Shown: positions 12,917-17,006 of the stretch, in pieces
How positions within the stretch are numbered: the stretch's first letter is position 1
Layout: every line of letters starts with the position of its first letter
Assembly (NCBI GenBank): GCA_964610875.1
Contig: CAZSWP010000028.1
Coordinates: 5,909-28,353 of the forward strand
Length of the DNA: 22,445 nucleotides
Reading direction: 5' to 3'
From: an uncultured archaeon
GTDB lineage: Archaea; Asgardarchaeota; Thorarchaeia; Thorarchaeales; Thorarchaeaceae
Notes under the pieces: generated by a model
Told to the model about the DNA's origin: nothing
Database searches by the model: none
The model's input: only the letters and a program-made list of their open reading frames with translations
Translations under genes and position numbers: made by a program

Positions 12917-13777
12917 CTAGCTATCTGACATAAGTAATCTATACATTTGGTCATATTGCTCCTTCATATTCAAATCATTATCAAGGTCTTCTCTGAGAGA
13001 AATATAGAAACGAGAGAACTTACCAAAGTCACTATCAAAAATTAAATCACATACTTTCTTCATAGTTTCCTGCAATTTACCAATTATCTCATTCTTGAAA
13101 ATGCTTCCTTTAAATAACTGCATATGAAGAAAAGCAGGTTGATGCAAAATAGCACCAGCAAGTATTGTTTGAACCCTGAATGTGGTACCGCTTAGTTGTT
13201 GTATTGTGTGCAAATCTTCATCTTTTATGACAGACAATAACATTAGATTGACGAAGTAAGACAATCCTATGGAAAACATAATCGCGCGATCGTGTAATGG
13301 AGCAGCTATCGAAACTATACTTGCCTCAGGGAAAATCATTGATGCCAGACTCATTTCGTGTTGTTCATTAGAAACCGGTATTAGAGCTATTCTCATCAGA
13401 TTGTAATCAGCACCTGGACCAAACAATGGATGGAGTGACAATACCTTTACTCCAGTTTGGGATATTCTCTCAACTACATCTATTACCTTCTCTTTTAAAC
13501 TAGATATTTCACAAATGATAGAATTCTGATGCAAATGAGGTGCAATTTCTTGGAGCACTCCGGAAACTACATCTGTTGGAACTGCAAGCATAATAAAATC
13601 CGAGTGCCTCACAACTTCAACATTACTTTTTACTATTCTAGCATCTTCCCCATTCATCAATGATAACAATTCGTCACTAGATGGATCACTCAGAGTCATT
13701 TCATATCCTTTTGATGCAAAGTACTTCATGAACCATTGACCCATAGAACCGTTTGCGCCAATTATCCCTACTCTCAT
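12917..13777 (-). CDS. tyrA: Prephenate/arogenate dehydrogenase (TyrA family)
   Basis: Rossmann motif VGIIGANGSMG, LAVP, EISSLK, SLHPLFGP, HDRAI. Confidence 0.9.
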   Translation of the reverse strand: MRVGIIGANGSMGQWFMKYFASKGYEMTLSDPSSDELLSLMNGEDARIVKSNVEVVRHSDFIMLAVPTDVVSGVLQEIAPHLHQNSIICEISSLKEKVIDVVERISQTGVKVLSLHPLFGPGADYNLMRIALIPVSNEQHEMSLASMIFPEASIVSIAAPLHDRAIMFSIGLSYFVNLMLLSVIKDEDLHTIQQLSGTTFRVQTILAGAILHQPAFLHMQLFKGSIFKNEIIGKLQETMKKVCDLIFDSDFGKFSRFYISLREDLDNDLNMKEQYDQMYRLLMSDS

Positions 13778-15168
13778 GATAAAACCTCTCTAAATGAATC
13801 GATAGCTAAAGCCAACTTGGACTTAGGTTGACATGCAGAAATTCTAATGTAGTCTTTATATAAATCTCCAAAACAGACTCCAGGAGTAACGCATATTCCT
13901 TTATCATAAAGAAGTTGATTGGATAACTGAAGACCATCTATATTCTTGTTCAATATCCTTGCAAATACATAGAATCCTCCATCAGGTCTGTGATATTCGA
14001 TAGGCAAATCCATAAGTTGTTCACAAATGAAATCTAATCTTCGTTCCATTATTCTAGAATAGCTCCGTGCATTTTCATCACATTTCAGAGCTTCCAAAGC
14101 CGCAAATTGGATGAATTCAGGGATACTTGTAAGACTGATACGCTGTAATTGGTTCATCCGTTCAATTGTGCTTTCAGTTGATATTGCATACCCAATTCTA
14201 AAACCAGTCATTCCAAAAGTCTTCGAGAAAGATGATACGCATACTGAATCACACTCCTCCAAATCCAAAATACTGCTAAATGGTGTGTAGCTGAAATTCG
14301 AATAAACTTCGTCACTTATTATCAGTAAGTTATTCTCAATTGCCAAAGATGAGATATCTCGTAGTACACTAGGTTTGATGACGTGACCAGTGGGATTTGC
14401 AGGAGAATTCAATATAATCATACTTGTAGTATTATTGATACTACGCGATATAGATTCGATAGTGGGGCTCCATTCTTTCTCATAAGAACTTGGTACATAA
14501 ACTGGTTTTCCACCGAGTAATTTAACACAGTTGGAGTATGCAGGATAACTTGGACTGAGAATGATCACTTCATCACCAGGTAACAATGTAGACATGATTG
14601 CCAAGAAGATTGCATAGCGTCCGCCAGGTGTAACTAGAACTTGTTTACAACTCAGATCCCTGGTATGTTTTTCTTTCAGCTTATTAGCAATACCCTTGCG
14701 TAAAATATCGATTCCTGAAGATTCAGTATATCTTGTGCGGTCATCAGCTAATGCTTTGATTACAGCTAGTTTTACTTTCGGAGGTGGGCCAAAGTCAGGT
14801 TCTCCAACTTCGAGATGGATTATTTTTGAACCAGTGTTTTCCAATCCAACAGCTTTATGGTGGATATCATACACACTGACATCCGTTTGTTGAGCAGAAA
14901 TGTCCATCTGAAGATTAACCGATTGTTGTATCAATTGATTTAGAAATCTTAACGAAAACATTCTGTCCACGCCATATTGGTCACTCATTTCACTAACGAG
15001 ATCTCTTAGATACTGCTCAACTTCCAAATTCTGGATGGGTACACCATTTTTCTTCTTTTCATACCCAATTCTCTTTGCAATTGATTGACGAATCCCAATT
15101 TGACGAACAACTTCAAGCGTTGATTCTACCATCTTTGCTCGGAGAATGGAGAGAGATAGTTCATCCAT
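13774..15168 (-). CDS. Chorismate mutase (AroQ-like) fused to class I/II PLP aminotransferase
   Basis: N-terminal LRAKM...IRQSIAKRIGYEKKKNGVPI (AroQ pattern), then HLEVGEPDF, NSPANPTG, SDEVY, SFSKTFGMTGFRIG. Start placed at ATG 15168 (GGAGG upstream) rather than 15246. Confidence 0.85.
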   Translation of the reverse strand: MDELSLSILRAKMVESTLEVVRQIGIRQSIAKRIGYEKKKNGVPIQNLEVEQYLRDLVSEMSDQYGVDRMFSLRFLNQLIQQSVNLQMDISAQQTDVSVYDIHHKAVGLENTGSKIIHLEVGEPDFGPPPKVKLAVIKALADDRTRYTESSGIDILRKGIANKLKEKHTRDLSCKQVLVTPGGRYAIFLAIMSTLLPGDEVIILSPSYPAYSNCVKLLGGKPVYVPSSYEKEWSPTIESISRSINNTTSMIILNSPANPTGHVIKPSVLRDISSLAIENNLLIISDEVYSNFSYTPFSSILDLEECDSVCVSSFSKTFGMTGFRIGYAISTESTIERMNQLQRISLTSIPEFIQFAALEALKCDENARSYSRIMERRLDFICEQLMDLPIEYHRPDGGFYVFARILNKNIDGLQLSNQLLYDKGICVTPGVCFGDLYKDYIRISACQPKSKLALAIDSFREVLS

Positions 15169-15301
15169 TCCACTGGGTCCCTCCAGGATCTCTACAAGGC
15201 GGGTAATAACCACTGAAATATACAGGATTGTTATCGCAGATTTCATTCATTATATTCCAAATTTTCTTACTTGCAAAATTGCGTCCATAGTTGAATACCA
15301 T
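15161..15301 (-). CDS. Putative second leader ORF (46 aa, aromatic-rich), overlapping the chorismate mutase start
   Basis: MVFNYGRNFASKKIWNIMNEICDNNPVYFSGYYPPCRDPGGTQWNG*; GGAG upstream; its TGA overlaps ATGGATGA of the next gene. Confidence 0.4.
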   Translation of the reverse strand: MVFNYGRNFASKKIWNIMNEICDNNPVYFSGYYPPCRDPGGTQWNG

Positions 15302-15314
15302 ATTTATCCACTCC

Positions 15315-15352
15315 AAAAAGAACACCTACGAAGACAAGAGTCATCGCGAGGT
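15315..15352 (-). terminator. Putative attenuator terminator (hairpin plus U-tract) in the leader of the CM-aminotransferase/tyrA operon
   Basis: Minus strand ACCU-C-GCGA-U-GAC-UCUU-GUC-U-UCGU-AGGU followed by GUUCUUUUU, beginning 11 nt after the leader ORF stop. Confidence 0.55.
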
Positions 15353-15363
15353 TAATTCCTGCA

Positions 15364-15444
15364 TCATAGAATGAAATAATAGAATCCACTATAGCAGGGT
15401 CTCTTCCCCTTAAACAGTGCTATAGTTTTTCTACTAATTTCCAT
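15364..15444 (-). CDS. Putative Tyr/Phe leader peptide (26 aa)
   Basis: MEISRKTIALFKGKRPCYSGFYYFIL*; ATG about 31 nt downstream of TATA-like TTATAA (15481-15476, minus strand); YSGFYYF cluster near the 3' end. Confidence 0.55.
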   Translation of the reverse strand: MEISRKTIALFKGKRPCYSGFYYFIL

Positions 15445-15451
15445 GATGAAG

Positions 15452-15545
15452 TCCTGTTTCTGCCAAGTTATTGGCTTATAACATTTATGGCTAATGATGT
15501 ACATTTATGGCTAATGATGGACAGAAACGGGGAAACCTTTATATT
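15452..15545. promoter_or_regulatory. Divergent promoter region: two TATA boxes flanking a 20-bp tandem repeat
   Basis: Minus-strand TTATAA (15481-15476); plus-strand GGAAACC-TTTATATT (BRE-TATA, 15531-15545); ACATTTATGGCTAATGATG twice (15481-15499, 15501-15519). Confidence 0.6.
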
Positions 15546-15577
15546 CCTTCAAGTTTGCGCTCAACTTGGTGAAAGCT

Positions 15578-15628
15578 ATGACAAGGCGGGGATGCCTTTA
15601 TTGTAGGCGGGATTGCCATTGGCAATAA
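15578..15628 (+). CDS. Putative trp leader peptide (16 aa)
   Basis: MTRRGCLYCRRDCHWQ*; GGTGA SD at 15568-15572; about 33 nt downstream of the TATA box; Trp is the penultimate codon. Confidence 0.5.
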   Translation: MTRRGCLYCRRDCHWQ

Positions 15629-15674
15629 CGATGAAGAAATTCGGACACTAGGTGTTCATACTAATTTTGAAGGA

Positions 15675-17006
15675 GTCAAACTCAGAAAACTAAGTATATC
15701 AAATTTTGACCCTCTCACTGCGTATATTTCACTAAAGGAGATATATCCAGGAGATAGTTTTCTCCTTGAATCAATGGAGGGGCCAAAAAAGACAGCCCGA
15801 TTTTCATTCATGGGCTTCAAACCAATTCTAACATTCTCCTCAAAACATGAGGATATCATGATTAACGATGAACGATTGAAATCGAGTAATCCATACGATT
15901 GTTTACGTCGTGTTTTCAACCATCTCGGTTCATCATTTGAACATAACCTACCGTTCACTGGAGGATTAGTAGGCTATATTTCATATGACATGGTTAGATT
16001 TTTTGAACGGATTCCAGCTGAATCAAAAGACGATTTGGATTATCCAGATTCCTATTTCATTCTTCCTTCTGTCATTGTATGTTATGATCATCTCGAAAAA
16101 GAAGTATATAGTATTTCTCGAGAGAAAGATTTGGAGAACAGTATAGAAACAGAACAACACTTTGGAGAACTGTCAATAGGAAAAGCAAAACAAAACATGA
16201 CACAGGAGTATTTTGAAGAGAGTGTAAGAAAAGCTAAGGAATACATCCTTGATGGTGATATTTTCCAAGTCGTTCTTTCAAGAAGGAGTCATCTCTTATA
16301 CAAAGGCGATAAGTTGAGAATTTACCAAACCCTGAGAAATATCAATCCATCACCATACATGTTCTTCCTTGATTTCGAAGATCATAGTTTGATTGGTTCC
16401 TCTCCTGAGATGTTAGTACAATTACGAGGGAGAGAACTAACTACCAAACCAATCGCGGGAACTAGACCAAGGTCCCCTGATCCAGAAGAAGACGAGAAAC
16501 TCAAAGTGGAGATGTTTCTCGACCCAAAAGAAAGAGCCGAGCATGTAATGCTTGTCGATTTGCATAGAAATGACTTGGGAAGAGTATCAGAGTATGGAAC
16601 TGTAAAGGTAGACCAATTTATGGATGTTGAGAAATTCTCACATGTTCAACATATCGTTTCCAGAGTACGAGGAATAATTCGACCCAAGTACTCTGGTTTT
16701 GATGCACTCAAAGCATCATTTCCTGCAGGAACGGTTTCTGGGGCACCTAAAATAAGAGCTATGGAGATTATTGATGAATTAGAACCAACTCAAAGAGGAC
16801 CTTATGCAGGCGTTGTAGGTTATTTTGATCTTAATGGTAACATTGACTTTGCAATAACCATTCGTTCAATATTCACAAAATGTAACTCACTGTATATCCA
16901 AGCAGGCGCAGGTATTGTCGCAGATTCTAACCCAGAAAGAGAATTTTTCGAAACAGAACATAAAATGGAGGCAATGGTCCACGCTCTTGGAGGTGTTGAA
17001 AATTGA
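15675..17006 (+). CDS. trpE: Anthranilate synthase component I (start uncertain; homology extends upstream of ATG 15774)
   Basis: In-frame upstream VKLRKLSISNFDPLTAYISLKEIYPGDSFLLES, then ARFSF, GGLVGYISYD, GDIFQVVLS, NPSPYMF, KPIAGTRPR, EHVMLVDLHRND, FPAGTVSGAPK. Confidence 0.92.
   Translation, partial: VKLRKLSISNFDPLTAYISLKEIYPGDSFLLESMEGPKKTARFSFMGFKPILTFSSKHEDIMINDERLKSSNPYDCLRRVFNHLGSSFEHNLPFTGGLVGYISYDMVRFFERIPAESKDDLDYPDSYFILPSVIVCYDHLEKEVYSISREKDLENSIETEQHFGELSIGKAKQNMTQEYFEESVRKAKEYILDGDIFQVVLSRRSHLLYKGDKLRIYQTLRNINPSPYMFFLDFEDHSLIGSSPEMLVQLRGRELTTKPIAGTRPRSPDPEEDEKLKVEMFLDPKERAEHVMLVDLHRNDLGRVSEYGTVKVDQFMDVEKFSHVQHIVSRVRGIIRPKYSGFDALKASFPAGTVSGAPKIRAMEIIDELEPTQRGPYAGVVGYFDLNGNIDFAITIRSIFTKCNSLYIQAGAGIVADSNPEREFFETEHKMEAMVHALGGVEN

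Follow-up and report, generated by a model that had tools for sequence, protein, structure and literature searches.

Can an archaeon read its own tyrosine supply through a ribosome that translates a short leader peptide ahead of a tyrosine-biosynthesis operon? The question is raised by a 22,445-nucleotide stretch of DNA (the window; contig CAZSWP010000028.1 of assembly GCA_964610875.1, positions 5,909 to 28,353) from a Thorarchaeota metagenome-assembled genome (MAG) of 3.75 Mb and 41% G+C, whose phylum is placed in the kingdom Promethearchaeati, the Asgard archaea (NCBI). On the minus strand of the window a short upstream open reading frame (uORF1) with a cluster of Tyr and Phe codons precedes an operon of aromatic amino-acid biosynthesis, and a preliminary description of this DNA had proposed that a bacterial-type attenuator joins the two. 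Comparison with related genomes indicates that the region is probably a ribosome-mediated, tyrosine-sensing leader of the operon, and that it belongs to a leader family which, among the genomes searched, is confined to one family of Thorarchaeota. The sensor part of this reading is well supported and the read-out part is not. Of the attenuator first proposed, the sensing leader is conserved, and the classical terminator/antiterminator read-out is the part that has to be given up.

The tyrosine-rich leader peptide and its distribution

The sensing part of the leader and the genes that it precedes are the following, in coordinates of the window.

15444..15364, minus strand: uORF1, leader peptide MEISRKTIALFKGKRPCYSGFYYFIL*, 26 codons from ATG to TGA, with orthologous uORFs in 24 of 24 operon-bearing genomes
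15373..15393, minus strand: regulatory codon cluster TAT AGT GGA TTC TAT TAT TTC (Y S G F Y Y F); family consensus Y-S-G-x-Y-Y/S-S-Y
13774..15168, minus strand: fusion gene for chorismate mutase (CM_2) and class I/II aminotransferase (Aminotran_1_2), from Pfam and ortholog N-termini
12917..13777, minus strand: prephenate/arogenate dehydrogenase of the TyrA family (PDH_N), overlapping the upstream fusion gene by 4 nt

The uORF and its five Tyr/Phe codons in a run of seven (Y, F, Y, Y and F) are present as first described, and Pfam bears out the aromatic-precursor genes downstream, a CM_2 + Aminotran_1_2 fusion followed by a PDH_N protein. The dehydrogenase gene adjoins the fusion gene in relatives too, and the three activities of the operon, chorismate mutase, aminotransferase and prephenate dehydrogenase, together convert chorismate to tyrosine. 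The Tyr codons of the leader match this product. The earlier suggestion of joint Tyr/Phe sensing has to be narrowed, since the signal is Tyr-specific across the family, with Phe only as an occasional substitute.

The comparison set consisted of 86 species genomes of the window's family, with no second genome of the window's genus among them. A profile of the N-terminal part of the enzyme finds the fusion gene in 24 of the 86, and a Tyr-tail uORF stands upstream of it in all 24, that is, in the window and in 23 other genomes from seven genera. The closest orthologs of the fusion enzyme share only 41-46% identity, and a metagenome scan with this enzyme returned one distant locus only and no close relative of the window's genome. 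The uORF, its Tyr/Phe codons and its hairpins are conserved in the orthologous leaders despite this divergence. Members of the family have uORFs of 23-32 codons with the Tyr cluster at the end; the consensus is ...YSGYYSYY* and the window has ...CYSGFYYFIL*, and examples from relatives include ...QYSGVYYSYYS*, ...QFSGYYSYSYSL*, ...RYSGYYSYYL* and ...QYSGSYSYRA*. Over the 24 leaders Tyr takes a mean of 3.9 of the last ten codons (39%), against 3.7% in the long open reading frames of the window's genome, and the enrichment is restricted to the tail, the first part of the uORF having only 3.9% Tyr. Frame 0 is open in 24/24 leaders and both alternative frames are closed by stops in 24/24, with synonymous variation inside the motif (TAT/TAC, AGT/AGC, GGC/GGT/GGA). 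The motif [YF]SG[FYVIS]Y[YS], obtained from the 22 other leaders with the window's copy left out, matches three times when the 3.75-Mb genome is translated in all six frames; one match is the window's leader, and 1.3e-4 matches are expected in the window's 330-nt stretch. A genome-wide screen for amino-acid-rich uORFs was too noisy to yield a usable signal.

The covariance model R1, built from the leaders of six relatives, matches 23 of the 86 family genomes, each of them exactly once. The leader is a single-copy element, always immediately upstream of the operon: 22 of the 23 matches stand before the fusion gene (in G090 leader and gene lie on two contig ends), and the remaining one, in G083, is a relic without operon in which the TATA box, the start codon (GTG to GAG) and the Shine-Dalgarno sequence (SD) are all mutated. 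The relic (L054:1501-1611) adjoins a methyltransferase gene and has an ArsR-type helix-turn-helix gene upstream. The model has no match in 125 sampled genomes from 26 other families of the phylum. Bathyarchaeia, Nitrososphaeria and other archaeal MAGs have the CM-aminotransferase fusion as well, with 31-45% identity over the N-terminal part (L055-L101), and by the same criterion none of 26 such loci has a Tyr-rich uORF. The preliminary description had cautioned that AT-rich DNA inflates the number of Phe and Tyr codons; since the operon-bearing loci have the pattern in every case and the outgroup loci in none (24/24 against 0/26), AT-richness is not the explanation.

The membership of the window's own copy is burdened by its divergence. 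R1 does not report the window's leader at any E value up to 1, and a second model, R2, places it correctly (15348-15447) with only 7.9 bits and E = 9.2; the leader of G007 is likewise undetected by both models. Nucleotide identity of the window's leader to the others is 0.57-0.64, no better than that of shuffles. The copy is assigned to the family because of its synteny, its peptide motif (p about 1e-4) and the identical order of its parts, with the enclosing hairpin, the hairpin P4, the U tract, the SD and the overlap of the second small frame with the enzyme gene (all described below) in family order. By sequence it is the most diverged member.

A TATA-like box precedes uORF1.

15481-15476, minus strand: TATA-like box TTATAA (GTTATAAGCC context), the counterpart of AAAGTATAATAGG conserved in relatives

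This box lies where it was first noted. The uORF start (ATG or GTG) follows the TATA box at 32-33 nt in six relatives, at 38-39 nt in the window and at 42 nt in G007. Judged by what is generally known of archaeal promoters, this spacing predicts a leaderless transcript, or one with a 5' untranslated region of about 5-7 nt.

RNA structure of the leader

The transcript of the leader is predicted to fold into the following helices.

15439..15448, minus strand: 5' arm of P1, CAUCAUGGAA, which holds the uORF1 start codon; in both the minimum-free-energy and the centroid fold
15362..15371, minus strand: 3' arm of P1, UUCUAUGAUG, which holds the uORF1 stop codon; from the fold, with the homologous P1 covarying in relatives
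15388..15426, minus strand: upper hairpin, a 9-bp stem ACUAUAGCA/UGCUAUAGU (P2 equivalent) with a GGG...CCC cap (P3 equivalent); from the fold, with P2 and P3 covarying in relatives
15436-15429 and 15384-15377, minus strand: a further tier below the 9-bp stem, UAGUAGAA/UUCUAUUA; from the fold
15324..15352, minus strand: hairpin P4, ACCUCGCGAUGAC...GUCUUCGUAGGU; from the fold, and predicted at the same place in most relatives

The RNA from 15455 to 15300 folds with -48.1 kcal/mol against -33.3 +/- 3.4 in dinucleotide shuffles (z = -4.4; 0/200 as good). The perfect 9-bp inverted repeat noticed at the outset (arms at 15426-15418 and 15396-15388, minus strand) is there, as no more than the middle part of a longer hairpin running from start codon to stop codon. 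The three-part hairpin P1-P3 encloses uORF1 entirely, its start region pairing with the segment around or just past the stop, and most of the Tyr codons fall in an unpaired stretch between the P2 and P1 arms.

These helices covary in the relatives. Because the helices are offset between genera, RNAalifold on MAFFT alignments returned the apical hairpin only, or nothing, and it was replaced by pair tables indexed from conserved anchors. Compensatory pair types appear there in P1 (one pair is CG in 11, AU in 6, GC in 3 and UG in 1), in P2 (GC in 14 and AU in 6 for one pair) and in the apical helix P3, where one pair takes five standard pair types. In the model-fitted alignment, some rows of which are misaligned and count against structure, 77.5% of cells are paired compared with 33-45% when partners are slid, and two-sided changes occur in 48 cells compared with 5-28. 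The covariation score is 0.324 as opposed to at most 0.117 for slid partners, and 0/500 shuffles reach these values. P4 sequences are unrelated among members, and no P4 is predicted in G007, G085 and two g8 genomes at the truncation used. Rfam families give no relevant match at or above the gathering threshold, and the window's leader contains no tRNA. An origin of the palindromic leader from a miniature inverted-repeat transposable element or another repeat was rejected, the intergenic DNA being unique in the genome.

Such a structure could itself be the sensor, as an RNA leader with a protein, tRNA or small ligand as its binding partner; the uORF would then be tolerated in it, and the Tyr codons would be a by-product of a UAUAG-rich motif. 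The strong covariation is in keeping with this alternative, and several properties of the uORF pull in the same direction, away from a translated sensor. Its substitutions have no 3-nt periodicity (entropy 23.4, 27.7 and 25.9 at codon positions 1, 2 and 3), the periodicity test giving no coding signal on the uORF beyond the open frame; the AGUGG of the conserved YSG is a helix arm, and RNA constraint could account for part of the peptide conservation; the tails have TAT and TAC at 88:5 where the genome has 2:1, an extreme bias that, with the repeated UAUAG words, may be an RNA-level constraint. The promoter-side TGTACA palindrome present in two genomes hints at extra protein control. Part of the uORF's conservation is, to judge from these patterns, at the RNA level, which keeps the structured-RNA alternative alive, and this is also as expected of a leader peptide, where just the frame and the sensing codons matter. 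What a binding RNA leaves unexplained is that frame 0 alone is open in all 24 leaders, that TATA box and start codon are a constant distance apart, that the Tyr codons sit mainly where the RNA between the P2 and P1 arms is unpaired, that the identity of the codons fits the pathway product, and that the start codon is lost in the G083 relic; nor is there an Rfam family that it matches. A ligand-binding RNA with an incidental uORF is therefore improbable, and the leader is more plausibly read by a ribosome that senses tyrosine.

The U tract, the relay frame and the read-out

Beyond P4 the leader continues into three further parts.

15315..15322, minus strand: U tract UUCUUUUU; relatives have CUCGUUUU, UUCUUUCU or CUUGUUCU
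15306..15314, minus strand: Shine-Dalgarno-like GGAGUGGAU; relatives have GGUGAU or GGUGGU
15301..15161, minus strand: ORF2, relay frame of 46 codons, MVFNYGRNF...PVYFSGYYPPCRDPGGTQWNG*, whose stop TGA overlaps the enzyme ATG at 15168 (ATGGATGA)

The U tract lies 43-45 nt past the uORF1 stop in the non-g6 relatives with a consensus leader, 44 nt past it in the window and 36 nt in G007. In the window the P4 stem ends at 15324 and UUCUUUUU begins 2 nt later; relatives have a longer spacer from P4 to the tract (about 3-15 nt, estimated by eye), and interruptions of the tract are common among them. The SD directly abuts the U tract and an AUG follows 5-10 nt downstream in 24/24 leaders, a conserved arrangement that the preliminary description had not tied to the leader. 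GGUGAU and GGUGGU are complementary to the usual 3' end of archaeal 16S rRNA. The small frame that begins at this AUG has 25-52 codons, and its stop falls between -8 and +5 nt from the in-frame enzyme start in 23/23 loci, as an NTGA overlap in twelve of them. In the window it lies in the 147 nt that separate the U tract from the enzyme ATG, and it contains the enzyme's own SD, GGAGG. The ORF2 peptide is not conserved between genera. Because the stop overlaps or abuts the enzyme start, ORF2 looks like a translational relay into the enzyme gene.

Further observations concern ORF2. In the window it holds YFSGYY (15203-15220, minus strand), a near-copy of the YSGFYY of uORF1, and in genus g12 it is Tyr-rich (DYLSYIVYT, AYLSYTVYTYPLQY), which is not so in the other genera; some lineages may have in a Tyr-rich ORF2 a second tier of sensing. 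In the first ~12 codons of ORF2 (L032-L053) a nucleotide motif, ...UCUAAC/UCAACAG...ACUCCAUA..., is kept across genera while the peptides differ. Its ACUCC is complementary to the enzyme's GGAG(G) Shine-Dalgarno at the 3' end of ORF2, and because of this complementarity translation of ORF2 might unmask the enzyme SD.

In the mechanism proposed for a tyrosine-sensing leader, the first ribosome would load on the nascent 5' end ahead of hairpin closure. With charged tRNA-Tyr plentiful it would reach the stop codon and depart, and the leader would fold closed; with tRNA-Tyr scarce it would stall on the Tyr codons, keeping the hairpin open and leaving the post-stop segment free to pair elsewhere. 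Expression of ORF2, the fusion enzyme and TyrA would then follow from the state of the U tract and SD, which the position of the ribosome would set. In the favoured output, a stall would free the post-stop segment to pair with the U tract and suppress premature 3'-end formation, and after read-through ORF2 would relay translation into the enzyme gene.

The read-out was examined by folding in silico. The sole pairings that compete in the switch involve the post-stop segment, which is complementary to the 5' arm with p<0.05 in 18/24 leaders. U-tract accessibility is 0.39 with the 5' arm masked as against 0.58, and if pairs across the ribosome are disallowed, the U tract and SD come out more paired with a ribosome stalled on the Tyr codons than with a terminating one in about 21/24 leaders. 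Taken at face value, a stall hides the U tract and SD, and the sign is the correct one, with expression on at starvation, only if exposure of the U tract results in 3'-end formation. Archaeal termination needs no hairpin and may depend on aCPSF1/FttA (PMC8716108, PMC11616081). aCPSF1 binds terminator U tracts and cleaves, and its Lokiarchaeota ortholog behaves alike (PMC8716108); FttA/aCPSF1 has been proposed to monitor transcription-translation coupling (PMC11616081). The window's genome encodes a 637-aa beta-CASP protein.

On this modelling, premature 3'-end formation or cleavage of the aCPSF1/FttA type at the exposed U tract is favoured as the output, and only tentatively so. Masking and unmasking of the ORF2 ribosome-binding site is the alternative output, held to be slightly less probable. 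The folding has the SD paired in every member, with a median probability of 0.005 that all four SD bases are jointly unpaired, and the window is the exception in that a modelled stall opens it (0.07 to 0.7). The remaining probability goes to other or mixed outputs. True ribosome-mediated attenuation in an Asgard archaeon, rewired to suit archaeal termination, with an exposed U tract read by aCPSF1/FttA as 'terminator', a helix that hides the U tract during a stall on hungry Tyr codons as 'antiterminator' and a relay uORF that takes ribosomes on to the first enzyme gene, is a doubtful description of the whole.

A number of results tell against the read-out. The hairpin and U tract of the preliminary description are present (15352-15324 and 15322-15315), and their part as a regulated terminator is not supported: in silico P4 forms wherever the ribosome sits, with the same pairing probability (median 0.75-0.78) in free RNA and with a Tyr-stalled or a terminating ribosome. 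That description had found no convincing antiterminator, and folding with ribosome positions masked likewise yields none that competes with P4, so the bacterial 2:3 / 3:4 scheme does not apply. The helix between the post-stop segment and the U tract and SD is barely above composition-matched shuffles (p<0.05 in 4/24; z = +1.0 in the window), and equilibrium folding that allows ribosome-spanning pairs gives no difference between stalled and terminating ribosomes. SD masking has the wrong modelled sign in most members, a stall leading to more masking. T5+ runs are slightly enriched after stop codons in the window's genome (13.9% vs 8.3% for A5+), and the U tracts of many members are short or interrupted.

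The position of the ribosome could also be set by the peptide itself, if uORF1 were an arrest peptide of the TnaC or fungal arginine-attenuator type through which free tyrosine in the exit tunnel, and not the charging of tRNA-Tyr, is sensed. The conserved motif is C-terminal, beside the stop, and includes the non-Tyr residues S and G; a ribosome arrested at the stop would sit over the post-stop segment and leave the U tract and SD exposed, and repression at high tyrosine would result if an exposed U tract means termination. The last one to three residues, however, vary freely (YL, YS, SL, GA, RA, TL, IL, H, Q), which those of known arrest peptides do not, the S and G are encoded by the helix arm, and uniform enrichment of the codons of one amino acid is the hallmark of hungry-codon sensing. 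An arrest peptide is thus quite improbable here. A chance combination of an F/Y-rich short open reading frame and inverted repeats in an AT-rich intergenic region can be dismissed as highly improbable: AT-rich DNA does favour TAT and TTC, and the window's leader has no significant nucleotide similarity to the others, but the fold (z = -4.4), the motif (p about 1e-4) and the same ordered parts in 24/24 operon genomes and 0/26 outgroup loci contradict it.

The shared promoter region and comparison with known systems

The start of the fusion enzyme is most likely the ATG at 15168 (MDELSLSILRAK...) and not that of the longest open reading frame at 15246, because ortholog N-termini align at 15168. 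The annotation was corrected, with the enzyme start moved to this position and the two unannotated small frames added. Divergent genes on the plus strand encode trpE, trpG, aroB and DAHP synthase, and a repeat lies in the promoter region common to the operon and trpE.

15482..15520, minus strand: two tandem copies of CATCATTAGCCATAAATGT (a 20-bp duplication) with a ATGTACAT palindrome at the junction, read from the sequence, directly upstream of the TATA box

A TGTACA box directly upstream of the TATA box occurs also in the leader promoter of G001, and two such boxes stand upstream of trpE in G012 and G019. The tandem duplication with its palindrome may be the operator at which a regulator of aromatic amino-acid genes acts.

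The start of trpE (15566-15774, plus strand; L136, L137, L138) is itself unusual. Ahead of the essential FLLES motif the frame has no ATG, GTG or TTG; it is open from 15582 on, directly past a TGA at 15579-15581 that overlaps the ATG at 15578 of a short open reading frame in the -1 register, MTRRGCLYCRRDCHWQ*, which has its own SD, GGTGAA. The same layout, with no start codon and an ATGA overlap, recurs in each of the family's four genomes that have a full trpE (four genera), and in all four a conserved Trp codon (15620-15622 in the window) stands a few codons before the stop of the short frame. The arrangement has the look of a programmed +1 frameshift into TrpE that is conserved and may take place at a hungry UGG. 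Genes for aromatic amino-acid biosynthesis are unevenly spread over the family: the Tyr operon is present in 24/86 genomes and trpE in just 5/86, a pattern which suggests that auxotrophy, or the gain and loss of genes, is frequent.

Attenuation by leader peptides is a standard example of bacterial gene control, known from trpL, pheL, hisL, thrL and ilvL of E. coli, and to our knowledge archaeal amino-acid operons are described as regulated by proteins such as TrpY. Full-text literature searches turned up descriptions of leader-peptide attenuation in bacteria only, and no case in Asgard or other archaea. The Thorarchaeota leader resembles the trpL/pheL type in having a short leader frame before an amino-acid operon, with the codons for the product clustered near its end, and in placing this frame within alternative RNA pairings that are followed by a hairpin and a U-rich tract. 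It differs in its Asgard host, in a leader frame that is probably leaderless and whose own start and stop regions pair, and in a hairpin before the U tract that has no competing antiterminator. The U tract, moreover, is short and abuts a Shine-Dalgarno site; a relay frame coupled to the enzyme lies between leader and operon.

In the erm and cat translational attenuators a ribosome stalled in the leader frame remodels hairpins that hide a downstream SD. This likeness holds for the stalled ribosome and the hairpins over the SD; erm and cat leaders sense antibiotics through the nascent peptide and not amino-acid supply, and they have no relay frame. Closer in what is sensed is the mycobacterial 'Cys ribulon', in which leaderless short frames encode polycysteine and a stalled ribosome blocks a structure that sequesters the ribosome-binding site (Canestrari et al., bioRxiv 10.1101/834739). 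There as here a sensory short frame with cognate codons is the first cistron of a biosynthetic operon, the leaderless start being predicted in Thorarchaeota from the TATA spacing. Here, in contrast, the codons are for Tyr instead of Cys, a non-conserved relay frame comes next and not the enzyme, the modelled stall unmasks the SD in the window's copy only and not in most relatives, and the host belongs to another domain of life. Eukaryotes have the multi-uORF leader of GCN4 and the arginine attenuator peptide of arg-2/CPA1. The Thorarchaeota leader, from a lineage related to eukaryotes, shares with these two successive uORFs before an amino-acid gene and translating ribosomes that would read amino-acid status; it has none of the scanning/eIF2 logic, and its initiation appears SD-dependent or leaderless, with a stop-start overlap and a polycistronic mRNA.

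If the reading is correct, ribosome-read metabolic sensing exists outside Bacteria, and the two-uORF layout would stand part-way between bacterial attenuators and eukaryotic uORF control. The leader would also be a natural test bed for transcription-translation coupling and aCPSF1/FttA termination in the closest prokaryotic relatives of eukaryotes. True attenuation of the rewired kind, if it is what operates here, would together with the frame-shifted start of trpE indicate that Thorarchaeota read their aromatic amino-acid supply largely via the translating ribosome.

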